A stretch of DNA of 64,000 nucleotides from Candidatus Thalassarchaeum betae. Lineage in GTDB: Archaea; Thermoplasmatota; Poseidoniia; Poseidoniales; Thalassarchaeaceae. The notes below the pieces were generated by a model that was not told where the DNA came from, searched no databases, and worked only from the letters and a program-made list of their open reading frames with translations. The DNA lies in contig PSPG01000001.1 of assembly GCA_003193925.1 (NCBI GenBank), positions 32,001 through 96,000 on the forward strand, written 5' to 3'. The translations under genes were made by a program, and so were the position numbers. Positions 10,789 through 49,700 of this stretch are shown here, piece after piece. How positions within the stretch are numbered: position 1 is the stretch's first letter; each line of letters opens with the position of its first letter.

Positions 10789-11421
10789 GTGAACGCCCGC
10801 GATGCCGCTTCCGCAGTCCGCGAATGGCTCCGGAGCGAACGCCTCGAGGCCCGCGACGTCGCAGACCAGCAGGCCATGCTGCACCTGCACGTCCGCTACC
10901 CTCCCACCAAGCAGGGCCACGTGTTCAATGTCGTCATCCCAAAGAATCGAAACCTCGTCCTAATCTACTCCGTCACCCGGGTCGACAACGGCCAGCAGAA
11001 GGAGATGAACAGCCACTCGGTGAACGACCCCGGAGAGTGGGAGAAGTGGCTGCACGAGATTAGGATCCACCTGACTCAGGCAGACTTGGACTGGGTTCTG
11101 CACGTCGGCAAGAAGCAAGAGGGGGTTCCTGGACCCCTGCAGGCGTTCAATCTCTCGAGGCCGGTCTGGTTCGACGGCCTGACCCAGAACGAGTTCATGC
11201 ACAATATGCGTCACCTCTGGCTCACCAAGCTCGCTCTGATTCACAAGATCAAGTTCGGGTATGGCTCAGGAGAGGGCAAGCCGGGCCCCGTCGACGACTG
11301 GATCGCCAAGAAGACCCAGAGCAGAGGCAACCAACCGCAGACTCACTCCGAGCCGACCGAGATCCACACCGACGAGACTGGTGGGTTCGGTCGTGACTTC
11401 GATCCATCCGAATGGGCTTGA
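10789..11421 (+). CDS. Archaeal hypothetical protein, DUF2299-like
   Basis: VREWL...LHVRYPP...FNVVIPK...FDGLTQNEFM resembles DUF2299; GTG start assumed. Confidence 0.6.
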   Translation: MNARDAASAVREWLRSERLEARDVADQQAMLHLHVRYPPTKQGHVFNVVIPKNRNLVLIYSVTRVDNGQQKEMNSHSVNDPGEWEKWLHEIRIHLTQADLDWVLHVGKKQEGVPGPLQAFNLSRPVWFDGLTQNEFMHNMRHLWLTKLALIHKIKFGYGSGEGKPGPVDDWIAKKTQSRGNQPQTHSEPTEIHTDETGGFGRDFDPSEWA

Positions 11422-11550
11422 GCAAGCGTTCCACTGCACGCGCTCTCGCGTGCGCATGTGACGGCTGGGGGTCGAGGTTAAGTATCGCAGGAAGGCGAAC
11501 AAGGACGATACAGCGGCGTTGCCGGAGGCTATGAAATGGAAACTGGAAAG

Positions 11551-14500
11551 ATGAGAAACAGCATAACGATGGTTCTTCTGATGATGATGAGCACGTTCGC
11601 GGTGATGGAATTCCCAAAAGCCGAGGCGAGCGAGGTCGTGCTGACCGACGCCATACAGATCGTCAACGGCGGCTCCGCCAATGACAAAATGGTCACCGCA
11701 GATGCCGATTCCATGGGCAATGTGCACATCGTGTGGAGCCGCAACACCCAGCACCTCTGGTACCAGATGCACAATCCGAGAGGGGACGTGCTGATTCTAG
11801 AGACCCAGATCTCCAACCCCGGAGCGCACCGAGCATGGCATCCCGACATCAGAGTCGATCACGACGACAACGTACACATCACCTGGACGGACAAGGCCGG
11901 TCAGTGGACGATCTTCTACACCATGCTCGATCCCTCGCAGGACGACCAGGACGGTGATTCCGCTGTGGACGCAGTGATAACGATCATCGACGACTTCGAG
12001 GTCTCGGTGCATACCCAGAACAGGGACTGGCCCGCCATTGACGTCGATTCCGAGAACAACGCCCACATCGTCTGGGAGGATTCGTTCGAGCCATTGGACA
12101 AGTACTACCAGCAGCCTCAGATTTACTACTCGATGATCGAGCCAGACCTGCAGTCCCGCGAAGCAATCGTGGCTGTCGGCGAGACGCTACTCACCCCAAT
12201 CATCGGCCACAAGGGCCACCCCGACGTGGCCGTGGACGCCGATGACTTCGTCCAGATCGTCTGGGACGATACCAGAGGCGGAAAGGTCGAGATCGTGGCA
12301 CCTATCGACACCTCCGGCTCGATGAACACCGAGTGGGCCGACATGTGCGTCGTCTTCTATGGCGGCTACTTCGCCAGCGGCGGCTTCTTCGAGGGCCTCA
12401 AGCCGATGCTTTTGAGAGCCAACATGACAGTCTACGAGACCCTCTACGCTCTCAGCGGCAACTGGCCGGCCGCTGCCACCAGCGGCAATTGCGCCGCTGC
12501 TTACCAGACCGGAGGCTCCGGTGGCCAGGGACCGCGTTCGACCCCCCTCGGGCTGGTTCCCGGAGACGACTCCGGCGGAATCAGGGAGCTGACTGAGGTA
12601 GTCTACAACGGCGGCGCAGTCAATCTGCCTCAGGATGGTGGCTACTACAGCGAATTCTGGGGCCCCGGCTCCAATTGGGCTTGTTTGTCGTGGCGAGACG
12701 CCCAAGGCAACGTCCCAGGCAATCCTCCGACCCAGTTGGATCACCACTGGAATCCCAACGCGACCAAGATCGTCATCCCGATCTCCGACGAGGGCCCGTA
12801 CGGCGGCGACCCCGCGCAGCAGTCAGATGACACCCAGAGCATCAACGAGGCTCACGACGCCTGCGTCATCGCCGGCATCATCCCGGTCCCACTGCTCGCT
12901 GCCGGATTCGGGGCTGGCTCCACAAACGTCGGCTCCCACATGATGGACCTCGCCCAGTGCCCGAACGGCTTCATCAGCCTAGGCACGAGGACATGCCCCG
13001 GGACCAACACGCGTCTGACCGATGCCGAGGGGATGATGTACAGCTTCCCGACGTCCTCTTCGAACTCGGCCGAGTTGCAGCTGATGGTCGAAGCCATGGT
13101 CTACCTGTCCACGAACAACTCGCGAGAGATATTCATGACAGTTCTAGACCCCCTCTCCCTCCTGCAGAACCCGCCTCCGACTTGGCAGAAGGGCGACTCG
13201 GGAACCTTCGTCGACTACACTGCTGACAGGTACATCGAGGACATCGGCCCATCCATCGACGGCCTCGGCTACGGCAACCTGGTTGTTGTCAACGACACCA
13301 GAATCACCCTCAACGACGCCTACAGCCTCCATCCGGCGATTTCGGTCGACACCTCCGGCAACACCCACCTCGCTTGGATGGACGGGCGCGCCTACGGCTT
13401 CGACATCGACGTCAATTACGAAATCTACTACACCCGTCTGCGACTGAGGGGAGCGGGCGAGTGGGATGGCGCCCCGGACGGACTGCCTTCCTACGGAATC
13501 AAGCAGATTGTCGATTCGGCGGTCTCCGAAGTCGAGGGAATCGACGGGATCCCGACGGACCTGCCGTTCGGAGCCAATTCGCACATGCCTGCGATAATCA
13601 CGGACTCGTTCGACAACGTGCACCTCTCGTGGCTGGACAATTACAATGGGACTCAGGGTGAGACCGTCGTCTACACTAAGCTAAACCACACCAACGACGA
13701 CTACCCCGAAGGCTTCCCGCTGAACTCACTCGCAGCCGGCATCCTCGACCCGTGGGAGATCATCCCCATCACCGAGTGGCAGTCTGACAAACTGGGCCCG
13801 AACTCTCCGGCCGTCCCCGACCTCGGCCAGCCCCCGGCATTCGCCAATGACCTAGGCAGCGGGGCCCACATCGCTTGGTCAGACACCAACAAGTGCAGCG
13901 AAATAAGCAACGGCGGCTCCTACACGCTGTGCTACGTACACGTCCTGACCGGTCTCGTCGAGGTCGCCCTCGACGAGACCGAGACCTACTACCACACTAT
14001 CGAGCCCGGCGAGCAGACTCTGTACAACATGACGATCTCGAACCCGACCCCCGGGCCGGCAGAACTGGTCGCCGACACGTTCACCGTGACCCTGGAGGGG
14101 GTCCCTAACAACTGGACCGCTACTCTGTTCTTCACCACGAATCACACACCGATATTCGACTCTACTCCGGTATTCCTCCGAGGAGGTGACGTGGTTCCGA
14201 TGTACATGCGTGTCCGCGCTCCGTCAATCTATCAGGCGCACGGCGACGAGTTGGCAACGATTACGGTGTCTGCAGTGTCCTACAAGGACCCAGCCATACG
14301 AGACGAGAGGCTCACGCTGACGCTGATGGACGTGGTACATGGCATCAACCTCGATACCAGCCACTTCCAGGTCGATGTCGAACAGGGGCAGTCCGCGATA
14401 TTCTCGATTACGGTGACGAATACAGGGAACGTGTACGATACCTTCGCCTTCTACGATCCATCCACTTTAGAGGGTCAGGTCGAATGGGCCCTGCCATTCG

Positions 14501-16617
14501 GTTGGGGGATCTCCTTCCCGACCTCGTTATCTTTAGACCCGGGTCAGTCGATAACACGCAACCTGCAGATCAGTGTACCCACCTCCCAGGAGCCGGGGAC
14601 CTTCGTAATCTACCTGAAGGGATGGTCCACTGGAGAGCCTGTGCTGTCCATCGACCAAGGGACCTTCGACGTCCTCGAGCTGTGGATCAATGTCTCGATC
14701 AAGAGCACCGGCAACATCGTGTTCCAACTGGGTGACACCACCCAGTACGTTTTGCCTGGCGACTGCTCGGAATTCGATATACAAGTCACCAAGCACTTCA
14801 CTCCCGGTCACCTGATATTCACCACACCCGGAGGCCCTGAGGAAAGGCCTCCGGAGATCTCCGAGCAGACATGGAGATTCGACCACTGGACCGTCGACTT
14901 GGACTTCTCCGAAGCACCGGGAGGCAATGGGATACCCGATTACTCACCTCGTTACTGGTCCATAATCGACACACCGTTCACGGTCACGGCAATCATGTGC
15001 GCGCCGTACAACGCCACTGCCGGCTTGGGTGACTCGGTCTCTGTGAAGGCCCATCTCCAAGGCGCGCCACGCGTACGCGACTCCGTGGTCCTGCTGACGA
15101 ACGTGGTTCAGGAGTACATCCTCGAGGCGAGCGTCCCCGAGACCATACTCGCATTGCACCCAGGGCAGTCCTATCAGCTGGATACCACCGTCGAGAACAA
15201 GGGCAACGGGGCCGACAGATACGACATCACCGTGGCCTCGATTACCGATTCGTTCGGAGGCTCGCACGTCTGGGACGTAGAAATCCCAAGGATACTGTTC
15301 CAAGAGCTGGATCGTGACGAATCGCAGACCGTCCCAATCCTCCTCAACGTTCCCGAGATGACCCATGCAGGCCAGTACACTGTGATTCTGAATGTCCTCA
15401 GCGAGGAGGCCTACGAGGGCACTAAACTGCGTGACACCATCGAGTTGCAAGTCGAGGTCGTGGAGTTCCACGACATGAGGATCGAAGTCGATCCGTTGGT
15501 CGAGAGTCGAATCAAGACGACTGCTCCCGGTAGAATCGTCAGATTCACCATGAACGTCACCAATTTCGGCAACATGCCCGACCAGCCCACTCTGCACAAC
15601 CACACGATAGTCATCGGCGCGGGCTGGGACACCGTGCCCGGCATGAACACGCTGAGCGACTGGCAGATTTCCTTCGCACTGCTCGAGGACTTCAACACGG
15701 AGTACCCGACCGAGAAGCCCTGCGTCGCTCTGATGCTGGGCGATCAGGTACCTACCGAGGGTTGCTACCTCGATGCGACTACCAACGCTGTCACCCTGCC
15801 AATGATGGAGGCATACTCCACTCTGCAAATCGTCGTGATAATCGCAATCGACCCAACCGCGTCTCTGTCTAACAGGGAGATTGGAATCAAAGTCCTCTCG
15901 TCATTCGGCTCGGCTGAAGCCGGAGGAGACTACGACGAGACCGCGGTGTGGGACGACTCCTGCACACTCGACGAGAACAAGGACGGACTCCCGGACAACT
16001 ACCCCCCGAACTGCGATACCAACGAGCAAATCGTCGAGTTGCGCCTGCGAGCGCCGGATTTGAAGATACTCGATGTTGATGTGGTGACCTATACCGGCGA
16101 TGTCGGAGAGATGCTATCGGTGAACGTACAAGTCGTCAACGTTGGCAACGCGCACGCCACAAACGTCAACATAATCCTCTGCGTCGACCAGTCTAAGTCC
16201 GACATCAAGAAGAACGGATGTGACGAGGGGAACATCGTCTACCGCCAGATCGTCCAAGCTATCATGCCTGCAAATGATGAGGATCCACCTCTAATCGCCC
16301 TACTGTACATGGTCCAGGCCGGCAGGCACGATGTCGTCGTCGTGGTCGACCCAGACAATGTGATCGTTGAGACCGACGAGACCAACAACATTCAGAAGGT
16401 CTCTAAGAAGATGGGCTCCAATCTGGGCATTCTGGATGTCGGCATCGAAGTCATTGCTCAGTACTCCGTACCGGCCATCATCCTCGGTGCCACCTTCGCC
16501 CTGATTGGCGTTGTCGGCGTGGTGATGTACGGACGCAGGATAGAGGCTCTCACTAGGTTCGCCGAGAAGAGCAGCCTAATCGCCAACCTCGACGACGACG
16601 ATGACATGGTCTTCTGA
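11551..16617 (+). CDS. Large secreted, C-terminally anchored surface protein: propeller-like repeats, vWA domain, COG1470/NEW3 Ig-like repeats, CARDB, TM helix
   Basis: Signal peptide; seven D-x3-N-x-H-[IL]-x-W-type repeats; IDTSGS MIDAS with IVIPISDE; TNTGNVYDTF/ENKGNGADRY repeats; VDPDNVIVETDETNN (CARDB); TM helix then an acidic tail. Confidence 0.88.
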   Translation: MRNSITMVLLMMMSTFAVMEFPKAEASEVVLTDAIQIVNGGSANDKMVTADADSMGNVHIVWSRNTQHLWYQMHNPRGDVLILETQISNPGAHRAWHPDIRVDHDDNVHITWTDKAGQWTIFYTMLDPSQDDQDGDSAVDAVITIIDDFEVSVHTQNRDWPAIDVDSENNAHIVWEDSFEPLDKYYQQPQIYYSMIEPDLQSREAIVAVGETLLTPIIGHKGHPDVAVDADDFVQIVWDDTRGGKVEIVAPIDTSGSMNTEWADMCVVFYGGYFASGGFFEGLKPMLLRANMTVYETLYALSGNWPAAATSGNCAAAYQTGGSGGQGPRSTPLGLVPGDDSGGIRELTEVVYNGGAVNLPQDGGYYSEFWGPGSNWACLSWRDAQGNVPGNPPTQLDHHWNPNATKIVIPISDEGPYGGDPAQQSDDTQSINEAHDACVIAGIIPVPLLAAGFGAGSTNVGSHMMDLAQCPNGFISLGTRTCPGTNTRLTDAEGMMYSFPTSSSNSAELQLMVEAMVYLSTNNSREIFMTVLDPLSLLQNPPPTWQKGDSGTFVDYTADRYIEDIGPSIDGLGYGNLVVVNDTRITLNDAYSLHPAISVDTSGNTHLAWMDGRAYGFDIDVNYEIYYTRLRLRGAGEWDGAPDGLPSYGIKQIVDSAVSEVEGIDGIPTDLPFGANSHMPAIITDSFDNVHLSWLDNYNGTQGETVVYTKLNHTNDDYPEGFPLNSLAAGILDPWEIIPITEWQSDKLGPNSPAVPDLGQPPAFANDLGSGAHIAWSDTNKCSEISNGGSYTLCYVHVLTGLVEVALDETETYYHTIEPGEQTLYNMTISNPTPGPAELVADTFTVTLEGVPNNWTATLFFTTNHTPIFDSTPVFLRGGDVVPMYMRVRAPSIYQAHGDELATITVSAVSYKDPAIRDERLTLTLMDVVHGINLDTSHFQVDVEQGQSAIFSITVTNTGNVYDTFAFYDPSTLEGQVEWALPFGWGISFPTSLSLDPGQSITRNLQISVPTSQEPGTFVIYLKGWSTGEPVLSIDQGTFDVLELWINVSIKSTGNIVFQLGDTTQYVLPGDCSEFDIQVTKHFTPGHLIFTTPGGPEERPPEISEQTWRFDHWTVDLDFSEAPGGNGIPDYSPRYWSIIDTPFTVTAIMCAPYNATAGLGDSVSVKAHLQGAPRVRDSVVLLTNVVQEYILEASVPETILALHPGQSYQLDTTVENKGNGADRYDITVASITDSFGGSHVWDVEIPRILFQELDRDESQTVPILLNVPEMTHAGQYTVILNVLSEEAYEGTKLRDTIELQVEVVEFHDMRIEVDPLVESRIKTTAPGRIVRFTMNVTNFGNMPDQPTLHNHTIVIGAGWDTVPGMNTLSDWQISFALLEDFNTEYPTEKPCVALMLGDQVPTEGCYLDATTNAVTLPMMEAYSTLQIVVIIAIDPTASLSNREIGIKVLSSFGSAEAGGDYDETAVWDDSCTLDENKDGLPDNYPPNCDTNEQIVELRLRAPDLKILDVDVVTYTGDVGEMLSVNVQVVNVGNAHATNVNIILCVDQSKSDIKKNGCDEGNIVYRQIVQAIMPANDEDPPLIALLYMVQAGRHDVVVVVDPDNVIVETDETNNIQKVSKKMGSNLGILDVGIEVIAQYSVPAIILGATFALIGVVGVVMYGRRIEALTRFAEKSSLIANLDDDDDMVF

Positions 16618-16620
16618 GAC

Positions 16621-17358
16621 TCAGCGCGCCAGCCACCAAGGCAGCGGCGTGCCCTCGCGGGCCGCCACGAGCCTGCCTTGGCTGGCTGCGAAGTCGCGCA
16701 TCAGTCGCTCGCGCAGGCTCTCCATCATCTCCTCGGCGCGCATCGACTGGATGCGGAGCCTCTGGGAGAATATGTCCAGGTCCAAGGGTCTGCGAGGTTG
16801 GTTCATGATGGCATGCGCAAGCTGCCTCTCCTCGTAAGACTCCGAGTGCTCCGAAATGCTCGGCGAGACCTTGCGCATGACCTGCTGGTGCAGAGCGATC
16901 ACAGCATCCCTATGCTCGTCTATGCGCTCTAGGGCCGAATCAAGCTCGGCTAGGATCCCGATAGCCTCGACCATAGGCAGTTTACGCCGGGTGCCTAGTC
17001 GGTCAACGACGCTGTCCAATTCCCTCGGAAGCCTGTGAGACAGGCGCATTGGACCTCCGGCTGGTATCTTCCTGTGCTCTGCGCGGAACAAGTCGGGACC
17101 GAGGTCAAGGCGCAGGGAGAACGATTGGTCGACCTTGTACATCTTCTTCGGAGGCCCTCCCTTCTCAGAGGGAACACGCTCGGAATCGACGAATTCGGAT
17201 TCCTCCAAGACTTTGAGGTGCTTGACGACCGCCTGCTGGCTCACATCCAGCAACTCGGAGAGTTGTAGGGGGTAGTGAGGCTCCTTCACCAATCGTCTCA
17301 GAATCTGGCGACGAGTCGGGTTCTCCAGTATCGTGAGTGCCTCGTCGAAACTGACCAC
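16621..17358 (-). CDS. ArsR-family winged-HTH transcriptional regulator
   Basis: LENPTRRQILRRL...YPLQLS...VSQQAVVKHLKVLE...GPPKKMY, followed by a coiled-coil-like segment. Confidence 0.88.
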   Translation of the reverse strand: MVSFDEALTILENPTRRQILRRLVKEPHYPLQLSELLDVSQQAVVKHLKVLEESEFVDSERVPSEKGGPPKKMYKVDQSFSLRLDLGPDLFRAEHRKIPAGGPMRLSHRLPRELDSVVDRLGTRRKLPMVEAIGILAELDSALERIDEHRDAVIALHQQVMRKVSPSISEHSESYEERQLAHAIMNQPRRPLDLDIFSQRLRIQSMRAEEMMESLRERLMRDFAASQGRLVAAREGTPLPWWLAR

Positions 17359-17741: not shown

Positions 17742-18473
17742 TCAGCCTTCGTCCCAGCCGCGCCAGTCTGATTTCTCTTCCTCTCGCTGAGGCTCATCAG
17801 CGACCGGAACCTGACCCACGAATGGATCGGGAACGTCCCGCTCTACCTCGCTTTGGGGCAGGCCGCGATACTCCCGGTACAGCTCGTCTGTGGTGGGAAG
17901 CCTGCCTTCGGAGGGGATGATTACCGGAGAGCCGCCCTTCTTGGCGCGCCTCCAATCGATGATGGCCAGAAAGAGAGCCACCCCTGCAAGTGGCAGCCCC
18001 AAGGAGCAGCCGAGAAACATCAACACGAACCAACGATCCTTGAACAGCGCGGCTCCCGCCGAAACGTCGTCTACCAGCCACAGGGTGGAATCACCGTCAT
18101 TATGCAGTGTGTATGTACCCGCCTCAATTGCTGTGAATACTCTGACTGGCATGTAACTGGTCCCGTTCTCAGTGACACGCTTTGCTTCCCAGACACCCGG
18201 AGTCGCACCCTCCTCTTCCTCTCCGGTGCTGTTGAGTAGCCTTAGCTCAGCCTCACCACCTCCCTCGATTCGCAGAGCGACATACTTCCCAGTCTCAGTC
18301 AGAGACACCTCACCGCTCTGCCCAGCCTCCAACTCCAAGAGGTGATTTTGCCCTGGATCCAGATTGTCATAGATCGAAGCCTCCGCTTGCCAGAGGGATA
18401 TGACACCGATTAACAGCAGAAGGAAGGAAGCCCCAGCGAGACGCTTCGCCCAACGCATCGCTCCCCCGGTCAC
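17742..18473 (-). CDS. Hypothetical membrane protein
   Basis: N-terminal signal/TM helix, beta-rich external domain, second TM helix, acidic tail. Confidence 0.72.
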   Translation of the reverse strand: MTGGAMRWAKRLAGASFLLLLIGVISLWQAEASIYDNLDPGQNHLLELEAGQSGEVSLTETGKYVALRIEGGGEAELRLLNSTGEEEEGATPGVWEAKRVTENGTSYMPVRVFTAIEAGTYTLHNDGDSTLWLVDDVSAGAALFKDRWFVLMFLGCSLGLPLAGVALFLAIIDWRRAKKGGSPVIIPSEGRLPTTDELYREYRGLPQSEVERDVPDPFVGQVPVADEPQREEEKSDWRGWDEG

Positions 18474-24958: not shown

Positions 24959-27900
24959 TCAGGAGCATCCTGTGGTAGCGCCACAGGAGTTGCACCTCAG
25001 ACAGGTCCCGTTCCTAGTCATCTGGCTGCTGCCGCACTCGGTGCAGATATCTCCAGTGAAGCCACGCTCCCGAGCGGCTTGGCGCACCCGCGCCTCGAGA
25101 TCCTCCAGGGGAGCGACAGCGGCCTCCAGAGTCATCTGGAGATCGCGCTTCTCTCCTTGAGTGCGGCTGATGCCTTCTTCGGTGATGGCGGGCTTGCTAA
25201 TCGACGTCTTGTCCAGATCCTCCTCAGTGACATGAGCTAGGTCATCCCGATTGAGATAGTGAATCCCCAGTTCCCTGAAGATGTAGTCGACGATGCTAGT
25301 CGACATCTTGACCCGACCGCTCCCTCCGGTGACCATCCCACTGGGCTCGAACTTCTGGAACGTGAACGACTTCACGAAGGCGTCCAACGGCACCCCGTAC
25401 TGCAGGCCGATGGATACGGCTATGGCGAACTGGTTGAGCATCGAGCGCCAAGCCGCACCCTCTTTCGAGGTGGTGATCATGATCTCGCCTAAGCGACCGT
25501 CATCGTATGTGCTTGATGTCAGGTACACGGTGTGCCCGCCGACCCGAGCCTTCAGGCCTCGCTGTTCCTTCACATTAGGCAGTGGTCTCCTACTGGTGAT
25601 ATAATCCTGAACGAAGGACTCGGCCAGCGGCTTGGCTTCCTGCTCTGGCACAGGCAGCACCCTGACGGTCTCCTCAACCATCTTCTCTACCATCTCTTCC
25701 TCTTCGCGCTCCTCTGCGTACTCGGCCGTGTCCACGAGTTGGTTCATCAGCGGCTGTGACAACTTGGAGCAGTCGCGGTATACGGCGCACGCCTTGTTCA
25801 TCGTGGTGTGACTGAGGTTGTAGGCCTCTCTGATGTCATCCACGGTGGAGTCGGATGGCATGTTGATCGTCTTGGAGATAGCTCCTGAGATGAACGGTTG
25901 CGCCGCAGCCATCATCCTGACGTGAGCAGGCCAGTCGATCGACCTCTTGCCGTACTTGCCGCAGGGGGTGGCGCAGTCGAAGACCGCCAGATGTTCGTCC
26001 TTCAAACCGGGCGCGCCCTCTATCGTGCCGTAGCCGAAGATATGTTCGTCGGCTGCGTCTATCTCAGTCGTGGTGAAGCCAAGGTATCCGAGGGTATCGA
26101 AGAACGAGTCTTCGTACTGGGCCTTCGACATCCCGAGCGTCCCGGTGCAGAACTGATCGCTGAGGATCGAAGGGGAGAAGGCGGAGCGGATGTCGAACAC
26201 GTCGCTCATCTTCTTTTCAATCCCCCTAACCCGCGCGGCGGTGAAGCCGAGATCCTTCAGGCGTTCGGCGGAGAGAGTGGGGCAACCGCTCAAGCGACCG
26301 GTCCCCACGATGAACTCCTCGATCGCCTCGGTCTCGCTGTTTGAGTAGCCGAGCCGACGTAGGGCGTTCGAAACGCTTCTGTTGATGATCCTCAGAGAGC
26401 CGCCGCCGGCCAGAGTCTTGTACTGGACGAGGGAGAATGCCGGCTCCACGCCGGTGGTGTCCGCGCCCATAACGAGCCCGATGGTGCCGGTGGGCGCGAT
26501 GACCGTGGTCTGCGCGTTGCGGTAACCATGCTCCTCGCCGACCCGAACGGCACGGTCCCAAGAGCTCCGGGCCGCATCGAGTAGATCCTTCGGACACTTC
26601 TTGGCATTGATTCCCATTGGAGGCACGGTGAGTCCCTCATATTCCTCCGCCGGTGCGTCGTAAGCGGCACGCCGGTGGTTGCGCATCACTCTCAGCATGT
26701 GCTTGGAGTTCCTCTCGTAGTCGGGGAACGCCCCTAGGATGGAAGCCATTTCGGCGCTCGTGGCATATGCCTCGCCGCACATGATGGAGGTGATGGCCCC
26801 GCAGATGGCGTAGGCCCGCTCGTCGTCGTAAGGGATTCCCATGTGCATCAGCAGCGAGCCGATGTTGCAGTAGCCGAGACCCAAGGTGCGGTAATCGTAC
26901 GATTTGCGGGCTATTTCCTCCGAGGGGAACTGGGCCATCAGAACGCTGATCTCAAGGGTGGTCGTCCACAGTCGGACGCTGTGGCGGAAGTCTTCAATCT
27001 GGAAGGTCTGCGTGCCCAAGTCGTAGTAGTGGAGGAGGTTGATGCTGGCTAGGTTGCAGGCTGTGTCATCGAGGAACATGTACTCCGAACACGGGTTCGA
27101 ACCGTTGATCCGACCGCCTTCGGGACAGGTGTGCCACTCGTTGATGGTGGTGTCGAACTGGACTCCAGGGTCAGCGCATGCCCAAGCGGTGTAGGCGATT
27201 TTCTCCCACAGTCCCCCGGCATCCACGGTCTTACACGGCTTGGGCTCCCTGCCTCGCTTGGTGGCTTTGTCCAGCTCGGTCCGCCAGTACAGGTTCCAAT
27301 CACCGCCGCCCCTTACCGCTTCCATGAACTCGTTGGGAACGCGGACCGAGTTGTTGCTGTTCTGACCGGAGACAGTCATGTAGGCCTCGCCCTGCCAGTC
27401 GGTGTCGAAGGACTCGAAGTCAACCCCTTTCCAACCTTGTCTAGCAAGATCGACGATCCTCTGTATGTGGGGGGGTGGGACATCATCCTTGATGGCACTG
27501 AGCATGGCTCTGCGAAGCCCGAGGTTAGTCCGCTGGTCGAATCTGCCTTCGTCGTCGCCATACTCCCAGATGGCGTCCATTAGGGTGTTGGCGTTCTTCT
27601 GCAGGATGCTGCTGCCGATTACGAGGGCGGAGACCTTCTCCTCCTCGCTGTGCTTCCAGTCGATGTACTCCTCGATATCCGGGTGATCGAGGTCCAGCGT
27701 GACCATTTTGGCAGCACGCCTCGTCGTCCCTCCCGACTTGATTGCTCCGGCAGCCCGATCTCCTATCTTAAGGAACGAGAGCAGCCCGCTCGAACTGCCG
27801 CCACCAGACAGGGGCTCGCCGGCACCGCGAACCCTAGAGAAGTTCGATCCGGTGCCTGACCCATACTTGAAGAGCAGGGCCTCGCGGCTCCACAGTCCCA

Positions 27901-28600
27901 TGATGGAGTCGGAGCCGCCGACCAGTGAGTCCGATACCGACTGGATGAAGCAGGCGTGTGGCTGGGGGCGCTCGTAGGCATTAGCAGAGTACTCCAGCGC
28001 GTTGGTAGCCGGGTTCACGAAAGAGTGTCCTTGGGCCGGCCCCTCGATACCGTATGCCCAGTGCAGACCAGTGTTGAACCACTGGGGGCTGTTAGGTGCC
28101 GAACGCTGACTCGCAATCAGGTAGCACATCTCATCGAAGTAGGCGCGGGCGTCGGCCTCACTTGCGAAGTAGTCGTACTTCCAGCCCCAGTAGGTCCAGG
28201 TTCCTGCGAGGCGTCGGAAAAGTTGCCTCCCATCATTTTCTCCACTTGTTCTATCGTCCACGTCAAGTGTCTGAAGCTTCTCATGATCCGGGACACTTCG
28301 CTGGAGCCAGACGGGCACACCGTCCTCCGGGACCTTCCGGAGGGCCTTGGGAACGCCGGCCTTGCGCAGGTACTTCTGGGCGCATACCTTCCCCGCAACC
28401 CCGGTAAAGCCGGGAGGCAACCTCACACCCTCGATGGCATCGGCCATCGAACCGTCCGGGTTCCTAATCTCCACATCCATCTCAATCCAGTCGAAGGCCT
28501 CGAACGGATTGTCCCCGGCCGTGGTGAAGCGACGCTCGATGACCATCCCGATCTCGGCTTCGCCGGTTTCGAGGTCACCACTGATTCTGGTCTCCATCAT
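24959..28600 (-). CDS. nrdJ: Class II (adenosylcobalamin-dependent) ribonucleotide reductase
   Basis: PNSPQWFNTG, PQPHACFI, GGTTRRAAKM, SNPCSE, TACNLAS, IAPTGTI, GAISKTIN; C-terminal TSCPD-like domain and CxxC-CxxC tail. Confidence 0.96.
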   Translation of the reverse strand: MMETRISGDLETGEAEIGMVIERRFTTAGDNPFEAFDWIEMDVEIRNPDGSMADAIEGVRLPPGFTGVAGKVCAQKYLRKAGVPKALRKVPEDGVPVWLQRSVPDHEKLQTLDVDDRTSGENDGRQLFRRLAGTWTYWGWKYDYFASEADARAYFDEMCYLIASQRSAPNSPQWFNTGLHWAYGIEGPAQGHSFVNPATNALEYSANAYERPQPHACFIQSVSDSLVGGSDSIMGLWSREALLFKYGSGTGSNFSRVRGAGEPLSGGGSSSGLLSFLKIGDRAAGAIKSGGTTRRAAKMVTLDLDHPDIEEYIDWKHSEEEKVSALVIGSSILQKNANTLMDAIWEYGDDEGRFDQRTNLGLRRAMLSAIKDDVPPPHIQRIVDLARQGWKGVDFESFDTDWQGEAYMTVSGQNSNNSVRVPNEFMEAVRGGGDWNLYWRTELDKATKRGREPKPCKTVDAGGLWEKIAYTAWACADPGVQFDTTINEWHTCPEGGRINGSNPCSEYMFLDDTACNLASINLLHYYDLGTQTFQIEDFRHSVRLWTTTLEISVLMAQFPSEEIARKSYDYRTLGLGYCNIGSLLMHMGIPYDDERAYAICGAITSIMCGEAYATSAEMASILGAFPDYERNSKHMLRVMRNHRRAAYDAPAEEYEGLTVPPMGINAKKCPKDLLDAARSSWDRAVRVGEEHGYRNAQTTVIAPTGTIGLVMGADTTGVEPAFSLVQYKTLAGGGSLRIINRSVSNALRRLGYSNSETEAIEEFIVGTGRLSGCPTLSAERLKDLGFTAARVRGIEKKMSDVFDIRSAFSPSILSDQFCTGTLGMSKAQYEDSFFDTLGYLGFTTTEIDAADEHIFGYGTIEGAPGLKDEHLAVFDCATPCGKYGKRSIDWPAHVRMMAAAQPFISGAISKTINMPSDSTVDDIREAYNLSHTTMNKACAVYRDCSKLSQPLMNQLVDTAEYAEEREEEEMVEKMVEETVRVLPVPEQEAKPLAESFVQDYITSRRPLPNVKEQRGLKARVGGHTVYLTSSTYDDGRLGEIMITTSKEGAAWRSMLNQFAIAVSIGLQYGVPLDAFVKSFTFQKFEPSGMVTGGSGRVKMSTSIVDYIFRELGIHYLNRDDLAHVTEEDLDKTSISKPAITEEGISRTQGEKRDLQMTLEAAVAPLEDLEARVRQAARERGFTGDICTECGSSQMTRNGTCLRCNSCGATTGCS

Positions 28601-39397: not shown

Positions 39398-42300
39398 TCA
39401 GAGGACGCGGCTGTTTAGCTGCTGGGCATCACCCACCACGCCGAACCCGTACTCCTCCTCGAGCGCGCGAGAGACCAGCCTGAAGTCGGAGTCGCGTGTG
39501 GCAACTAAGATGCTGCCGACGTCGTTGATGCTGGTCGAAGCGAGAAGTGCGGCATCGCACATGATGTCCCGATCCCCTCTTTCCGGGTAGATCTCCTCTC
39601 CGCCGATGGACGTCCTCTTCGGTGCTTTGCCACCTCTCCTCTTCTGCTCGTCGACCAGTTGGAAGACCTCACGGTGCCTGACGAGGAACTCGTCCAGCCC
39701 GACGTCGGTCTTGTTCCCCTCCGAGCCGGAGTGCTTCCAGTCACCGAAGGCCGTGCAAATCGCCTGCACCCTCTCCTGGAGGAACTCGGCAGTGATTTTC
39801 TCACCCCACATGCCCTTGTCGATGTACACGTCCTCGAACAGTCCCAAGACGGAGTCCGGGCTCTTCGCCCGATGCAGGAACTCGCCCTTGGCGGCAGGCG
39901 GTATGTGAAGATGAACACGATCTTCCCCTCTCCTGCGTCTCAGCATCCAGTGGAAGGCCCTCTCCACCGTCCAGTCCAGACTTCCTAGGCTATCCACTGA
40001 TATCTCCATCAGCAGGTCGTCTTTCAGCGCCCCGATCAGAATGTTGGTATCGACCAGTATCAGCGGTCTGAGGGACAGGTTCCTCAGCGTCCTCCTGTCC
40101 TTGACCGGTATGGTTCCGCTGTGGCTTCCGAAGAGAGCTCGTTGGGTCCTCTTCAGAGTATTCTTCTGCTTGGCATTGAGGCTGCCAGATTCGATGGCCT
40201 TCTCTAACATCCAGAGTCCACGAAGCGGGTCATCCTCTGTGACTTCCATGCAGATGAGTGTGATTTCCTGAGTGTCCTTCTCCCCCCTCATCTCAATCAG
40301 GAACCTCCTCTCCAAATCGGATTGACGACTAGTCTCGGAGCTCCTCAGCTCCTGAAGAGCGGCCCTGACTCTTCCTTGGAACGGGTCCAGGGGGAGGTCA
40401 TGCTCGTTGGGATACCTCTGCAGGGTCTCCAGAGCCTCGAGGCGCCTCGCCTTGACTCCGTTCCCAGCGCCGTTCCTCGTACGCTCCTCCTCTCGAGCGG
40501 CGAACTCTATCAGGCGACTGCTGGCAGCCTCCTTCTTGCCTTCTTCGTGGTCCCTGCAGATTCTGAGGTAGAGTTTGAATCGGTTCGTGACGGAGCTTGA
40601 GAGAACAGGATGGCCATCGATTAGGGCCACCGCTTCCCTCCACCCCGCGGCGTGAGCGAACTCGATGAGCGACTTGCGCAGTATCAGAGCCGAGCGCTCA
40701 AAGTCCAAGCGTAGTTTCATCGCAGCATCTTTGTAGGCCCGGGCCGCGTTCATACGATCGTCGTTGCCTCGCAGGATGGCGGCCCTGACTATCTGAAACT
40801 CCGCCCCTGACCTGTCGTGGTTGCTATACCACTTCTCCAGAGGCCCGACTCCTACATTGTGCTCGATAACCAGATTGGTCGCGCCACCGATGATGCGCAT
40901 CGACGAGTCTTTGCGACCACAGAGACGACCCAAGGACTCAGCCGCGCTCTCCTCGCGCTCCGTAACTCCACTCTGCAGGTCCATCGCAGCGCGGTTCAGT
41001 AGCAGCGCATCGATGAGAGCGTCGAACAGCCTACTCTCCAGACGGGTGAGTTCGGCGATTTCGATGGAATGTCTCAGATCCTCTATTCTAGCCTCTCTGA
41101 CGACCCCGTCACCTTCGGGAGACAGGGCCCGCCTGACCTCGTTGAGAGCCCTGAGTCCGTCCGAGTCGAGTTTCTTATGCACCGATTCGATGTCTTGCGG
41201 GATTCCGTCTAGCAGGGAGATCAGGGCGATAGAGGCATCCGAGAGGATTCCGTCGTCGACGGAGCCCTCGATCGACATCAGCGCTGACTTTCGCAGCGCT
41301 GACAGATTATCCTTGGAGCCGATGGCGTCCTTCCCACTTATCAGGTGCCAAGCCAGCAGGACCCGATGAGGGTAAGCACGAGCGAGTGACGGGTCTTCCT
41401 TGAGAACGCCAACCAGACCACCGATGTCAGCCGCACTAGTGAACATGTTGAGTATCTCGTCGGTGTGCCTGATGGAGTCCATTTCGGAGAGCCTCCTAGC
41501 GGCCTGCAGTCTGATTCGAATTGGGACGCCATCATGCCTCATCACGAGGAGGGCTCCATCCCCGTCCATGGTGGTCACCGCTTCGGTGACGGAATCGCCG
41601 AGAGCCTCCGAGTCTACCGTCACGAGGATGTCCAAAGCCGTGGAGACTTGCAAGGACCCCTCGATGCCAAGCTTCTCGATGTGCTGAAGCGCTTCGCTGG
41701 CCTTGCCTTCTGAAACCAGGCTCGAGGCGAGGCTCCACTTCAGCGCTTCCGGTATCACCTCACCAACTTCGGCGAGGACCGCGGATCCTGCGAGCAGGTC
41801 TTGCACCGATAACTCAACTCCAGAGTCTTCGACGCGCCGCCAGGCTGCGACTCTGAGTGCCCTAGACAAGCTACCGTCCCCGCTTCGCTTGGCGCAGGCC
41901 TCCCAGTCAGAGAGGTTCCCAGAGCGGATTCTGATCAGCATGGAGTGCCTGCCGGACAGTTCTCCCAATGCGCCGCCCTCCAGTACGTCAAATACTCCTA
42001 GAGCTTCGTCGCTCGAGGCGGATGCTAGCAGGATTCCCTCCAGAAGAGCCCCCTCCTCCCGGAGTCCCCTCAGCGATGGTCGCATAGAGCTGAGCCATCG
42101 ATTAGGCCTCACTCGACCCCCCGAGAGGTCGCGTTTGATGCTCTGCAGGACCGAAGCTTGCTCGGAACTGGTCTTGAACGGCAGATCCACCGAGAGCCAC
42201 ATCTTGAGCTCATTGTGGTCAAGCGGGTCGAAGCGGGCCGCTTGGACCCAGTCCGTGGAGTCGACGACGACAACTTCTGGCTCGACTACTGGGAAGCGCC

Positions 42301-42808
42301 CCATCTCTGCAAGTAGAGGCGCCTCTCTGGCCAACCGCTCCCATACAGGGTGGATACCCTGCTCGCATTCTGATCGGAGAGAGACCATTTCACCATCCCA
42401 CGATGAATCCCACGACGCGCCCATCCGCTGCTTCTGAGCTGCCAGCACAGCGAGTTTGTATGCGGGCGGCTCGCTTGAGCACAGGGCCTCGGCGGGGGTT
42501 GCTAATCGGTCCTCCATGCTCCTGATCTTCCCCCTGCCGCCGCGTCGGCCGAGCCTAGGGCGGCGTCTGCTTGTCGCACCGCTAGGACCAGAGGGGACCT
42601 CGATGCCAATCGCCTCGGGAGCCGCCTTGGTCGCGGCTAGGAAGGCCAACGCCTTCCATTCGAGTGGCAGCAGGGACCAAACCCGAGAATCCCGCACCTC
42701 CTTCCGGCGCCTGCCGAGATCGTCACCGGCTCTCTGAAGGAACTCGAGACACTCGTGAAGATAATCCTCCATCGGACCCCCCGGTAGGTCGGGTCCATGC
42801 ACTTCCAT
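39398..42808 (-). CDS. Large alpha-helical protein with a C-terminal PIN nuclease domain
   Basis: LILVDTNILI...AKGEF...GDRDI...LVATRDSDF in the last ~220 aa; the rest is Ala/Leu-rich and helical. Confidence 0.8.
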   Translation of the reverse strand: MEVHGPDLPGGPMEDYLHECLEFLQRAGDDLGRRRKEVRDSRVWSLLPLEWKALAFLAATKAAPEAIGIEVPSGPSGATSRRRPRLGRRGGRGKIRSMEDRLATPAEALCSSEPPAYKLAVLAAQKQRMGASWDSSWDGEMVSLRSECEQGIHPVWERLAREAPLLAEMGRFPVVEPEVVVVDSTDWVQAARFDPLDHNELKMWLSVDLPFKTSSEQASVLQSIKRDLSGGRVRPNRWLSSMRPSLRGLREEGALLEGILLASASSDEALGVFDVLEGGALGELSGRHSMLIRIRSGNLSDWEACAKRSGDGSLSRALRVAAWRRVEDSGVELSVQDLLAGSAVLAEVGEVIPEALKWSLASSLVSEGKASEALQHIEKLGIEGSLQVSTALDILVTVDSEALGDSVTEAVTTMDGDGALLVMRHDGVPIRIRLQAARRLSEMDSIRHTDEILNMFTSAADIGGLVGVLKEDPSLARAYPHRVLLAWHLISGKDAIGSKDNLSALRKSALMSIEGSVDDGILSDASIALISLLDGIPQDIESVHKKLDSDGLRALNEVRRALSPEGDGVVREARIEDLRHSIEIAELTRLESRLFDALIDALLLNRAAMDLQSGVTEREESAAESLGRLCGRKDSSMRIIGGATNLVIEHNVGVGPLEKWYSNHDRSGAEFQIVRAAILRGNDDRMNAARAYKDAAMKLRLDFERSALILRKSLIEFAHAAGWREAVALIDGHPVLSSSVTNRFKLYLRICRDHEEGKKEAASSRLIEFAAREEERTRNGAGNGVKARRLEALETLQRYPNEHDLPLDPFQGRVRAALQELRSSETSRQSDLERRFLIEMRGEKDTQEITLICMEVTEDDPLRGLWMLEKAIESGSLNAKQKNTLKRTQRALFGSHSGTIPVKDRRTLRNLSLRPLILVDTNILIGALKDDLLMEISVDSLGSLDWTVERAFHWMLRRRRGEDRVHLHIPPAAKGEFLHRAKSPDSVLGLFEDVYIDKGMWGEKITAEFLQERVQAICTAFGDWKHSGSEGNKTDVGLDEFLVRHREVFQLVDEQKRRGGKAPKRTSIGGEEIYPERGDRDIMCDAALLASTSINDVGSILVATRDSDFRLVSRALEEEYGFGVVGDAQQLNSRVL

Positions 42809-46547: not shown

Positions 46548-46726
46548 CTCTATCACTAACCCCCCCACAGCCGACTTTCTTGATGCTTTGCGAACCGCTC
46601 AAGTCGGTGGTCGGGCACCAAGCGGCCTATGATACCCGGATAGCGCTGGTGATACGCTTGCGCACGCGCGGGGGGTTCTGTTGATAAGCGGGGCGAATTT
46701 GACGGGCCACTTCGGTGGTCGGCACG

Positions 46727-49700
46727 ATGGACGAGACAAGCACTAGAACAATGAGAGACAGGAGGAAGAACAACTCTGCGATAGCGATGGTACTGCTCAT
46801 GCTGATGAGCGCGCAGCTGTACAGCTTCCAGGATTTCGAGAGGGATGATCCCGAGGAATCCGAATGGGGTGCCGTGCCTCAGAGGACGGCATACCAGCAG
46901 ATGAACCAGGCTTCGGGACCAATGTCAGGAGACTCCCAGGGTCAGCCAGCAGCGGGGTTCGCGTGGGACCAAGTCAGTTTCACCGATCCAAGGTACCACG
47001 ACCCCGCTTCGTTCTTCGGCAAGGTATCGGACCCCTCCATCCTCAACCTCGATGCCGGATACGGTTTCTTCCTCGAGCAGACTCGGACCCAGGACCACGA
47101 CAACGACGGTATCGACGACCTGAATGACCTCGATGACGACAACGACGGAATCAACGACCTCCTCGAGCGCTTCGACGGCTGCTACGGCACCGACCCGTTC
47201 GACCACGATAACGACGGCATCCTCGACGAGTTCGACTGGGACGACGACAGTGATGGCATCCTCGAGGGGCCGATCGACTACTCGCAGGGCACCGACCCGC
47301 GAAACGTCAGCGCCGACCGCTACGTCGAACCCTCCACCGTCCACCCGTGGACCGGGACTCCTGTCGGCACCGGCTACCTCGTCGACCAGAACCCGATGGA
47401 CCACGACAACGACGGGATAACCGATGAGGACACCGACGGCACCGGCCGCGGCTCCTACGACGAGGACGACGACAACGACGGTCGGATTGACCAGTTCAAG
47501 TGGCCCTGCGACTTCGACGGCGATGGCTTGCAGGACTACTTCGACCTCGATGATGACAATGATGGCGTGGCTGACCTGTGGGACGAGCACCCGTGGGACG
47601 CCACGAAGACCGGCAACATCACTGCCACGGCTCCCCTTTGGGAGGGCTGGGTGGTGTGGTCCGCAGGAGCCACTACTCACAACGTCAACATCGTGAGTGG
47701 GGGCTACATCTCGAGTACATTGAACATCAACGCAGGCGACACCGTGGTATGGACCAACACCGACACCGTCGATCATACGGTCACCCACTCCGGCACGACC
47801 TTCGACAGCAACCCGATTTCGCCCGGTGGCACCTTCAGCTACACATTCACCACTGCTGGGACTTACAACTACTCCTGTCTGCTACACCCCACGATGACCG
47901 GCCAAGTGGTCGTCACATCCTCGGGGACGACGGCTAATGTCTACTCGCACTTCGTCGGCGGCGTCGACTACGTGCAGCGCGAGACCATGTGGCACCCGCG
48001 AAACCAGAGCTTCACCATGATTATCGACGGCGACCTCGACGGTGACGGGATCCCTAACTTCCTCGACCCCGACGACGACAACGACGGCACGCCTGACTCA
48101 GCCGACACCGACGACGACAACGACGGCCTGTTGGACATGTACGACGTCGACGACGACAACGACGGCATCCCGGACACCTGCCATCAGATCGACACCAACA
48201 ACGACGGCGTAGGCGACTATCCGATTCCCTACACCAGAATAGAGGTCCCCGGCATCGACTGCGAGATGGATTACGACCGAGACCTCGACGATGACCGGTA
48301 CCGCCCCATAGACCAAGATTACGACTTGGTCTGGGACTGGTTGGACCCTGACATGGGGGGAACTGCTCTCCCAGACAATCCACTCGGTGGACCCGCCTTC
48401 GACGCCAGCGACATCCCATTCGACCTCGACAACGATGGCTTGTTGAACGAGGAGGACCCATTCATGATATCGACTTGGGACGAGGTACAGACTTGGAACT
48501 GCCCGAGCGTAGACAACCCGAACCCGGTCAACTCGCACGAGAACTGCGTGCTGATGCGCAAATCGTACACTGGCAACAACGACTGGGACGGTGATGGGAT
48601 CAACAACTGGGAGGACGTCGACGACGACAACGATGGCATCCTCGACTGGCTCGACCTCGACCCCGATTGCGACTTCGACGACGACAACGACCTCCACCAG
48701 CTGAACGGCTCCATGTACCGCGACGACGGTCCCAACGACATCGACACCGACATCGACGGTGACGGCCTGCCGAATGATGTGGACTGGGACGACGACAACG
48801 ACGGCATCCCCGACTACTACGACCCGGATGACGGCAACTGCGGGATAGTCGACTCAGACAGCACCGACCCGTTCAGCAGCTACTACTACTCACACGGAGA
48901 CGGCGATCCCATCGACGGCTCCGACGACAGTGACATGTACGCTGATGACACGGTGCACACTTTCTACTGGAACCAGAGTTGGATGTTCAATCCGTTCAAT
49001 CTGGAGAACAATTTCGTCCTCGACTACAACGGCTACGTCAACGACGCCACCGGTGTGGTAACCGGCAAGGTGCCCGAGATGTACTGGTACGTCATCATGA
49101 AGTGGAGTCCATACAACGGTGGCAACTACTTCGACATCGACATGGATGGCGACTCCTTAGTCAACGGCATAGACGTCGACCAAGACGGAGACGGCCTGCC
49201 TGACTGGTGGGACCAGGACGAGGGCAATGACGGAGTCCTCGATGTGGACGACATCAAGATGGGGGGCTCCTTCGACGAAGGGACCTGCGGCTCCACATTA
49301 TTCCTAGTCGTCTATCAGATTGCACTGTCCGATCACGCATGCGGCCTCGATTACGCCTGGCTGTACGGTTGGCCTCTCCAGAGGGCTACCCAGACCCAGC
49401 AGAACATCTACACCTCCCCTTACAGCTCCAGACCCGATCCGGAGCACGACGAAGGCGCTTACAACGGGAGCAATTCGCAGGGGCAGTGGACCTGCAACAA
49501 GAACTGCTTCTGGTTCGACTTCTTCGGCAATCAGGACATCGGCCCCAGCTCTGCTGTCACCTACAACCAGATCAAGGACAACCGCGACCTCTGGATTGCC
49601 TACGTCGGCATCAACTACGGCCTGTTCTCCTGGAACTCCGACGGCAACGGAAACATGTTCCCCGACGAGCGAGCCGACCTGTTGAACAACGACGTCGACC

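Follow-up and report, generated by a model that had tools for sequence, protein, structure and literature searches.

The window analysed here, a stretch of 64,000 nucleotides from contig PSPG01000001.1 of Candidatus Thalassarchaeum betae, contains a gene at positions 11536 to 16617 whose product is modelled as a seven-bladed β-propeller with a vWA domain (von Willebrand factor type A) inserted into it, carried on a long stalk with a C-terminal membrane anchor. The organism belongs to Marine Group II (MGII; Poseidoniales), which passages in PMC6461757 and PMC6864105 describe as uncultured and as the planktonic archaea that are most abundant in surface seawater. It is for their contacts with particles, algae, viruses, and one another that this near-universal protein of approximately 1700 amino acids (aa) may matter.

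The open reading frame (ORF; P0001) is uninterrupted and lies in a region with a G+C content of approximately 60%. The original prediction for this gene, made from the letters alone, placed the start at 11551; that codon is in frame but corresponds to Met6, and the full ORF opens at 11536. All seven of the repeats that it had quoted were found, at aa 58, 108, 171, 234, 605, 690, and 772, with the consensus D..GN.H[ILV].W. The pattern D.{2,3}[GDNSF].[HQ][ILV][ATVS]W occurred 7 times in the protein, whereas 5000 shuffled versions of it contained 0.006 copies on average and never more than 1. From the N- to the C-terminus the order is propeller repeats with an insert of approximately 283 aa after repeat 4, CARDB and immunoglobulin (Ig)-like modules, one transmembrane helix, and a tail. 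The single helix agrees with the original prediction, and the acidic tail is 27 aa long rather than about 25. The CARDB and Ig-like modules that had been expected after the head were recovered as Pfam matches. The features of the gene, including those of a candidate MIDAS (metal ion-dependent adhesion site), are as follows:

11536..16617 (+): whole ORF, 1693 aa plus stop, with an alternative in-frame start at 11551
11536..11628 (+): candidate Sec signal peptide, aa 1–31 (K5/R7, hydrophobic run at aa 10–24, AEA|SE), read by eye
11629..12273 (+): propeller part 1 in the model, comprising the closing strand (aa 31–36), blades 1–3, and the first two strands (A and B) of blade 4 (aa 32–246); repeat motifs at 11707–11736, 11857–11886, 12046–12075, and 12235–12264, read from the ORF
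12274..13122 (+): vWA-fold insert, aa 247–529, with six conserved Cys and lineage-specific loops (model and hhalign)
12307..12321 (+): MIDAS loop 1, D258-T-S260-G-S262, at the β1/α1 junction (alignment and model)
12652..12654 (+): E373 in S-E-x-W-G-P, candidate third MIDAS ligand (topology, co-loss, and conservation)
12784..12792 (+): MIDAS loop 3, S417-D418-E419, directly after β4 (KIVIPI) (hhalign)
13123..13965 (+): propeller part 2 in the model, comprising strands C and D of blade 4 and blades 5–7 (aa 596–808); repeat motifs at 13348–13377, 13603–13632, and 13849–13878
13966..16464 (+): stalk of β-sandwich modules, aa 811–1643 (Pfam and NCBIfam matches)
14383..14610 (+): NPCBM_assoc/DUF7507, with NPCBM_assoc at aa 950–1025 (Pfam)
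14992..15423 (+): Ig_VWA7/choice-of-anchor T, with Ig_VWA7 at aa 1206–1287 (Pfam and NCBIfam)
16051..16392 (+): CARDB (PF07705), aa 1506–1619, E 2e-12, 47.6 bits (cut-off 22.7)
16465..16533 (+): single C-terminal transmembrane helix, approximately aa 1644–1666 (Kyte-Doolittle scan)
16534..16614 (+): 27-aa tail, RRIEALTRFAEKSSLIANLDDDDDMVF (RR...DDDDDMVF), presumed cytoplasmic

Sequence searches with the whole protein against PDB chains gave no match at E ≤ 1, and the propeller halves and the insert of the window protein had no Pfam match even at E ≤ 10. Homologues were counted among the 120 listed of 550 matches, the full-length ones being 1660–1750 aa long. Their source names were "CARDB domain-containing", "hypothetical", or "uncharacterized membrane protein". 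Where an organism was named among the matches listed, it was Candidatus Poseidoniales, Thalassarchaeaceae, or Poseidonia, and the closest match with a family-level name was from Thalassarchaeaceae (78% identity).

The propeller head and its inserted domain

An AlphaFold2 model of the head was built from an alignment (A1) of aa 30–830 with 26 homologues of 29–86% identity. The model had a mean predicted local distance difference test (pLDDT) value of 84.2 and a predicted template modelling (pTM) score of 0.84, with low confidence in the loops at aa 636–680 and 720–740. The best chains found by Foldseek were re-aligned against this model to obtain Z scores. CylK (7ron) superposed with Z 32.9 and a root-mean-square deviation (rmsd) of 2.7 Å over 350 residues (model residues 8..778), WDR5 (2h13_A) with Z 27.9 and rmsd 2.5 Å over 291 of its 303 residues (model residues 2..778), and PLL lectins with Z 26–28. 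Whole seven-bladed propellers can thus be fitted to the model from one side of the insert to the other, and its repeats therefore form one closed seven-bladed ring. The original prediction had staked its case on such a closure around the vWA insert, and in this confident model the closure was observed; as modelled, then, the head is a closed seven-bladed propeller with an insert.

The DSSP string, read against the sequence, gave four strands for every blade: A (hPDIxV), B (xHIxW), C (xIYYxxL), and D. In blade 4, strands A (aa 226–233) and B (aa 239–245) precede the insert, strand C (aa 530–537, REIFMTVL) follows it, and strand D (aa 583–589) comes after an excursion at aa 538–582. Because REIFMTVL fits the C-strand pattern of the other blades, we assign the insert to the loop that joins strands B and C of blade 4. 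The vWA domain had been predicted between repeats 4 and 5 at about 12280–13110; the order was right and the modelled core (aa 250–526, nt 12283–13113) coincides with that interval, but the insertion point falls within a blade, where it separates the second strand of blade 4 from the third, rather than between two blades. In the model the N-terminal strand at aa 31–36 probably completes blade 7.

When the whole head was submitted to Foldseek, the best match was the integrin αL headpiece (5e6s_E; E 1.2e-8), and five of the first eleven rows were I-domain integrin α chains. Because the template modelling (TM) score of that best match was 0.22 and its rmsd 21 Å, the head shares its domain composition with αL but not the arrangement. 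The A1 profile matched only a CARDB-like nuclear magnetic resonance structure among PDB sequences (E 0.37).

The blades were related by sequence to repeats of other prokaryotic proteins. The NCBIfam model "PDIAV motif-containing lipoprotein" gave a sub-threshold match on the repeats of the window protein, which itself matches neither PF06739 nor PF15892, and BNR_4 matched 3 of 27 homologue heads. A representative all-versus-all search returned 995 proteins at E ≤ 1e-3, most of them matching the blades only. Ten of these repeat relatives were scanned; BNR_4 was present in seven and SBBP in four, together with laminin-G, subtilase, lipase, CARDB, PKD, PGF-CTERM, and T9SS tails. On this sequence evidence the blades are of the SBBP/BNR_4 type and not of the FG-GAP type. 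Blades of this kind are thus a widespread module of extracellular proteins in prokaryotes, and it is the insertion of the vWA domain that is derived.

The insert was also modelled alone (aa 247–579, alignment A2 of 31 rows), with pLDDT 83.9 and pTM 0.79. In this model β and α elements alternate in the order β1-α1...β4-α5-β5-α6-β6-α7. A structure search independent of Foldseek (VIA) against 48,161 PDB representative chains listed 50 rows, all 50 of which were vWA domains, with Z 9.4–12.2 and 152–194 residues aligned. The highest scores were those of CMG2 (Z 12.2, rmsd 3.3 Å, 164 residues), BatB (12.1), and vWF-A1 (11.9); collagen VI, TEM8, pilus adhesins, and the I domains of αM (10.6) and αL (9.9) also matched. 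The rows listed by Foldseek for the insert were all integrin β chains, with a best E of 3.6e-5 and TM scores of 0.29–0.36. A language-model atlas placed the insert near VWA, VWA_4, and Integrin_beta clusters (0.85–0.89; PF00362 clusters 0.86–0.88), values that serve as leads only. The insert is thus a divergent vWA fold as modelled, in agreement with the original prediction.

Because Pfam gave no VWA match, the vWA assignment rests on fold prediction, profile-profile alignment, and motifs. For the alignment, the insert profile was compared by hhalign with 12 canonical PF00092 domains from other Thermoplasmatota genomes, in local mode since global mode aligned nothing. The comparison gave P 2.5e-5 over 163 columns (probability 75%), and P 7.8e-6 (probability 84%) when three distant relatives were added, against P 0.13 for a reversed template and P 0.47 for an unrelated profile. 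At the level of sequence profiles, this supports distant homology of the insert to canonical vWA domains.

A β-meander loop within the vWA domain, LTEVVYNGGAVNLPQDGGYYSEFWGPG (12571–12654, aa 346–373), has a weak likeness to the three repeats of the lectin actinohivin that is not significant (E 0.85).

The candidate metal site

In the hhalign alignment, IVAPIDTSGSM was paired with xxFVLDRSGSM, so that DTSGS lies on DRSGS, and KIVIPISDEGP with xxILLTDGxxx, so that ISDEGP lies on LTDGIT. DTSGS (aa 258–262, nt 12307) and IVIPISDE (aa 412–419, nt 12769) had both been named by the original prediction. Because in the model DTSGS stands at the β1/α1 junction and SDE directly after β4, two of the three MIDAS loops are canonical. 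For the region of the MIDAS Thr, hhalign gave no confident placement and no Thr could be assigned. The topological equivalent of that Thr is the residue before the helix at aa 375–384 that precedes β4, and in the model this stretch reads S-E373-F-W-G-P. Of the residues expected for a MIDAS, DxSxS and the Asp are thus present at the aligned positions, and the usual Thr is probably replaced by E373, a candidate ligand suggested by topology and co-loss. Integrin βI domains have a Glu at this position (E220 in β3), which fits the Foldseek ranking.

DxSxS, E373, and SDE were found together in 117 of the 120 homologues listed; of the other three, two had no WGP for the script to anchor on, and in one the stretch that was scanned contained no DxSxS. 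Co-loss was counted in A2, from whose 31 rows three fragments had been removed to leave 28. The motif D-S-S-D was kept in 21 of these rows, every one of which had E373, and was partly lost in seven, four of which had E373 replaced; since it is the motif that sets the groups apart, and the rows share ancestry, the pattern is no more than a hint and has no standing as a statistical test. M263 and S417 also co-varied with the motif in A2. The strictly conserved residues are concentrated in the motifs of the vWA domain. DTSGSM, SE.WG, and ISDE are also preserved in distant vWA relatives, from three genomes of other Thermoplasmatota families, that lack the loops specific to Poseidoniales.

Stalk, distribution, and locus

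The stalk of approximately 830 aa is estimated from its length to contain about seven or eight β-sandwich modules. The choice-of-anchor T match (NF041740) was marginal at 71 bits against a cut-off of 70 and covered model positions 99–246 of 259. Four N.GN motifs occur in the stalk, at aa 962, 1221, 1343, and 1535. Across 27 homologues CARDB was detected in 15, NPCBM_assoc in 13, DUF7507 in 10, and Ig_VWA7 in 5, and the language-model atlas placed the stalk among CARDB/NPCBM_assoc/FixG_C Ig-like clusters of Thermoplasmatota. A C-terminal hydrophobic run was present in 118 of the 120 homologues listed. R1667, R1668, E1677, and S1680 of the tail are invariant in 13 orthologues, and both large families share the pattern RR..EAL.R..E[KQ]SS[LM] followed by an acidic end. 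The protein is acidic (D+E 13.6% versus K+R 4.8%). The hydrophobic N-terminal leader, the six conserved Cys of the insert, the acidity, the CARDB/Ig-like modules, and the C-terminal transmembrane helix all indicate a surface location, and from these sequence features we infer export via Sec and a type I membrane topology.

The insert domain was detected in 149 of 151 sampled Poseidoniales genomes, which comprised 72 of 74, 2 of 2, and 74 of 74 genomes of the three families and 22 of 22 genera; the two genomes with no insert match were 94% and 84% complete. In a phylum-wide sample of 251 genomes, it was found in the genome of the window and in 46 of 47 other Poseidoniales, and in 0 of 7 genomes from the sister family within that class. 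The 203 genomes that do not belong to the order gave only three weak, partial matches. One is a frame (L053, G285:C454:3-1427, −) that ends at a contig edge and aligns to aa 103–443 of the head with 24% identity (E 1e-19); it contains a propeller repeat followed by DTSGS, SEDWGP, and SDE. Because the propeller repeat precedes the vWA domain there, the propeller-embedded form may exist outside Poseidoniales, with contamination as a possible source. The other two have the same divergent vWA subtype without repeats, in a 766-aa protein with Big_7/Y_Y_Y matches (L051, G204:C19:3-2300, +) and at the N-terminus of a 1561-aa protein with a dockerin at its end (L052, G241:C86:1264-5946, −).

The genome of the window (G000; 1.48 Mb, 92% complete) has four paralogues, with 100, 68, 53, and approximately 48% identity in the head, all of which keep the site. 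The three further copies, which keep DxSxS, SE.WGP, and SDE and have differing tails, are:

C14:2499-4883: paralogue in G000
C13:2106-4226: paralogue in G000
C4:109622-112399: paralogue in G000, with an extra insertion between the vWA domain and the second propeller half

Genomes of the window's family have 1–4 diverged paralogues each, and those of the second large family mostly one match. At least one genome of the window's own family has a paralogue without the MIDAS motif (L031, G015:C10:56234-57178). In L031 and in P0130, P0134, P0136, P0137, and P0140, DxSxS and the Asp of SDE were lost together, reading, for example, PTDGS and GRY; P0137 shares its motif stretch with the G015 paralogue, which gives an indirect indication of the taxonomic range of P0122–P0142. 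The sequences suggest that the diverged lineage of L031 and the P0130-type proteins is a metal-independent subfamily.

The gene order at the locus is FAD-oxidoreductase, HIT, DUF2299, propeller-vWA gene, ArsR-type regulator (−), small membrane protein (−), TopoVI-A (−), and TopoVI-B (−). It is kept in three of four other genomes examined, one of them from the other large family, and not in the genome from the small family; the conserved order identifies the window copy as the ancestral orthologue at a housekeeping locus. The nearest neighbours are:

10789..11421 (+): cytoplasmic DUF2299 protein with an invariant C-terminal FDP.EW, upstream of the gene in three of four other genomes
16621..17358 (−): ArsR/HTH_20-type regulator of 245 aa with a long C-terminal extension, convergent with the gene and adjacent to it in three of four other genomes
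17742..18473 (−): 243-aa protein with an N-terminal hydrophobic leader and a second transmembrane helix, no Pfam match; a conserved neighbour with weak similarity in G027, G003, and G015

A second DUF2299 copy (L048, G000:C14, 5077–5685, −), 57% identical to the first, stands upstream of the C14 paralogue as well, and the pair therefore seems to have been duplicated together. Complex prediction for DUF2299 (alignment A5) with the tail (aa 1660–1693, alignment A4) gave a score of 0.00; with the fold of the partner uncertain, this is evidence neither way. Between the two large families the vWA domain (61–63% identity) and the first stalk segment (60–67%) were most conserved, and the membrane-proximal stalk (38–47%) and the transmembrane helix with the tail (36–40%) least. 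Contigs of three RNA-library runs from three studies lay on parts of the gene at a likeness of at least 90%, which is compatible with transcription and no proof of it; since the data are contigs, their depth cannot rank genes and uncovered parts mean nothing, and a fourth run (X2) probably consists of DNA. In the RNA runs only a small share of the index words was present (0.07–0.15), and no habitat claim was drawn from it.

Function and likeness to known systems

Like the I-domain integrin α chains (αL, αM, and αE), the protein combines a seven-bladed propeller that contains a spliced vWA domain with β-sandwich legs, one transmembrane helix, a short tail, and DxSxS. Its insert, however, lies within the B-C loop of blade 4, whereas the I domain of integrin α lies between blades 2 and 3 according to passages in PMC12422189. 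Moreover, its blades are SBBP/BNR_4-like instead of FG-GAP, and Glu probably stands for the MIDAS Thr. In Pfam, FG-GAP (PF01839) matched neither the whole protein nor either propeller half at E ≤ 10, and GFFKR does not occur in the tail, where the orthologues share RR..EAL..E[KQ]SS instead. The original prediction had noted both absences and had withheld homology to integrins; given blades of the SBBP/BNR_4 type it was right to do so. Membership of the integrin α family was considered and rejected on the FG-GAP blades, the insertion between blades 2 and 3, and GFFKR, none of which is found here, and the likeness is convergent, not homologous. No β-subunit candidate was found among the neighbours at the locus, and PF00092 gave no match in the whole 1.48-Mb genome, in which no other search for βI or hybrid domains was made. 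Integrin βI domains resemble the insert in that all Foldseek rows listed for it are integrin β chains; such domains use a Glu as a ligand in the MIDAS, and additional loops enlarge their vWA fold. The TM scores for these matches were low, however, generic vWA domains scored higher in the VIA search, and the protein has no hybrid, PSI, or EGF domains.

The nearest prokaryotic analogue, as far as the consulted passages of PMC11525922 describe it, is PilY1, the tip adhesin of the Pseudomonas aeruginosa type IV pilus, which has a vWA-like domain with a MIDAS and a seven-bladed propeller. In PilY1 the domains are in tandem on a pilus, with the vWA at the N-terminus and the propeller at the C-terminus, whereas here the vWA is inside the propeller and the protein is anchored by its own stalk and transmembrane helix. 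CMG2/ANTXR2, TEM8/ANTXR1, SpaC, PitA, Mfa5, and the PilB of S. sanguinis also use an extracellular MIDAS vWA domain for adhesion, and were among the better VIA matches of the insert, the scores in this group being 12.2 for 9doc_A (the best), 11.5 for 7b7p_A, 11.4 for 3n2n_F, 10.4 for 6m48_A, 10.4 for 7w6b_A, and 10.3 for 6tnj_A. CMG2 and TEM8 are type I membrane proteins. Unlike the protein of the window, none of this group has its vWA domain embedded in a propeller, and their identity to the insert is 11–15%. The SBBP/BNR_4 repeat proteins of bacteria and archaea share the blade repeat PDIAVD..GN.HVVW; none of the 10 scanned has a Pfam-detectable VWA, and the window protein for its part reaches no propeller hidden Markov model (HMM).

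We interpret the protein as a metal-dependent cell-surface adhesin or receptor of MGII, a reading that we consider somewhat better than even (roughly 0.55). After export through Sec, the protein would be anchored by its C-terminal transmembrane helix with its short conserved tail, and the stalk of CARDB and Ig-like modules would raise the propeller-vWA head. The MIDAS-like site (D258, S260, S262, probably E373, and D418) would hold Mg2+, Mn2+, or Ca2+, and an acidic group of the ligand would complete the coordination of the cation, giving metal-dependent adhesion or reception. Other vWA adhesins with a MIDAS bind an acidic group of the ligand through the cation (passages in PMC12422189 and PMC11525922). 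As an adhesion receptor the protein may be relevant to particle attachment. Surface adhesins with vWA domains were already known; what is new here is a probable adhesin or receptor of this kind with a convergent propeller-insertion topology.

In MGII papers, genes for flagella, thrombospondin, and flotillin are treated, alongside "adhesion domains" that are not named (passages in PMC6461757, PMC4511931, PMC6864105, and PMC6741140). The words integrin, von Willebrand, and propeller are absent from the main texts of PMC6461757 and PMC4511931. A search of the full-text literature on MGII and other archaea found no description of the propeller-vWA architecture, and Table S4 of PMC4511931, on adhesion-domain proteins, may list homologues. 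PMC11706807 concerns the VWA domain of a viral CobT and is irrelevant.

Several observations weigh against a metal-dependent adhesin. The Pfam VWA family was not reached at threshold by any of 21 insert orthologues, the best being a single one of the 21 to PF00092 at E 0.022; a profile of the insert (A3) did not find a vWA domain among PDB sequences, its only match being actinohivin, over 27 residues of the β-meander loop. The Z scores of 9–12 in the VIA search are moderate, and the fold evidence consists of predictions from shallow alignments of 27–31 sequences. E373 as third ligand comes from topology and co-loss only, and because some paralogues are without the motif, metal binding is not essential for every member of the family. 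N-glycosylation sequons are not enriched (13 observed versus 12.1 ± 3.1 expected). A gene that is near-universal, syntenic, and single-copy in one family is atypical of niche-specific adhesins, and coastal MGII populations have been reported as mostly free-living (passages in PMC6864105). For a near-universal gene at a housekeeping locus, a core role in the envelope or as a receptor fits as well as a particle-specific adhesin.

The main rival explanation makes the protein the chief envelope component of Poseidoniales, an S-layer-like canopy. Its stalk would be anchored in the membrane, the heads would pave the cell, and the cation of the MIDAS would serve head-to-head contacts in a lattice instead of the binding of foreign ligands. 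Ubiquity, synteny, size, and anchoring accord with this canopy as well as they do with the adhesin. Presence in almost all sampled genomes, at a conserved housekeeping locus and, in the second large family, usually as a single match in each genome, would suit such a structural component, as would a large, acidic protein that is anchored by a C-terminal transmembrane helix and built largely of Ig-like modules. Many archaeal S-layer proteins are large, acidic, C-terminally membrane-anchored, Ig-like, and dependent on divalent cations. The distal head is the conserved part, as lattice contacts would lead one to expect. The sequon count does not favour this explanation, however, nor do the diverged paralogues in the window's family, some without the MIDAS motif; we know of no S-layer protein with a propeller-vWA head. 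A literature search on the MGII envelope found nothing. We regard the canopy as possible but doubtful. A transmembrane signalling receptor, in which ligand binding by the vWA domain would be relayed through propeller and stalk to the tail and recruit a cytoplasmic partner, in an integrin-like outside-in manner, appears unlikely. It would account for a tail conserved across both large families and for a vWA domain tied at its two termini to a blade, the arrangement by which I-domain integrins couple their α7 helix to the propeller. Next to the gene, the cytoplasmic DUF2299 protein and the ArsR-type regulator are conserved, and DUF2299 seems to have been copied along with the C14 paralogue. Between families, however, the transmembrane helix and tail are the least conserved part, the tail is short and has no known motif, and a neighbourhood within a housekeeping block is weak evidence.

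A surface-anchored enzyme, with a catalytic propeller of the sialidase, glycosidase, or CylK-like kind and an accessory vWA domain, seems most improbable. Foldseek matches of the head did include the sialidases NanB and NanC (E 7e-8 to 5e-5) and GH43 enzymes, the best VIA match was the CylK propeller, BNR_4 was detected in homologue heads, and subtilase or lipase domains occur fused to propellers of related proteins. The sialidase and GH43 alignments were nevertheless poor, with an rmsd of approximately 21–22 Å or only approximately 210–250 columns, and the matched enzymes have 6- or 5-blade propellers. The window protein matched no catalytic-family HMM, its strictly conserved residues cluster in the vWA motifs, and a propeller that stands beside separate catalytic domains in the relatives is itself suggestive of a binding module.

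If the protein is an adhesin or receptor, it might also work as a convergent integrin-type machine, with the vWA domain as an allosteric, cation-gated sensor whose state is relayed through the stalk to the tail and a cytoplasmic partner; we consider this extension quite unlikely. Were it true, attachment of planktonic archaea would be regulated and reversible, under inside-out or outside-in control, and the system would be the first of its kind outside eukaryotes and a second, convergent propeller/I-domain insertion besides that of chordate integrins. As a natural case of convergent I-domain insertion of the integrin type, the protein helps in any event to ask why this topology recurs. D258, S260, S262, E373, and D418 offer a concrete candidate binding site that can be mutated. 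A soluble head construct could be used for ligand fishing, and antibodies or probes against it could serve to sort or enrich MGII cells.

Long antisense ORFs occur within the gene, for example at 14944–15828 (−; 294 aa), and were taken as by-products of a coding region of 60% GC. Elsewhere in the window lie two giant ORFs: one of 2664 aa at 46715–54709 (+), with only a C-terminal DUF4129 match and a weak cupredoxin-like match, and one of 1136 aa at 39398–42808 (−), with no Pfam match at E ≤ 1e-5. The class II ribonucleotide reductase at 24959–28600 (−) is unusually long (1213 aa); its barrel was matched in two stretches, followed by TSCPD, and an intein or another insertion is possible.

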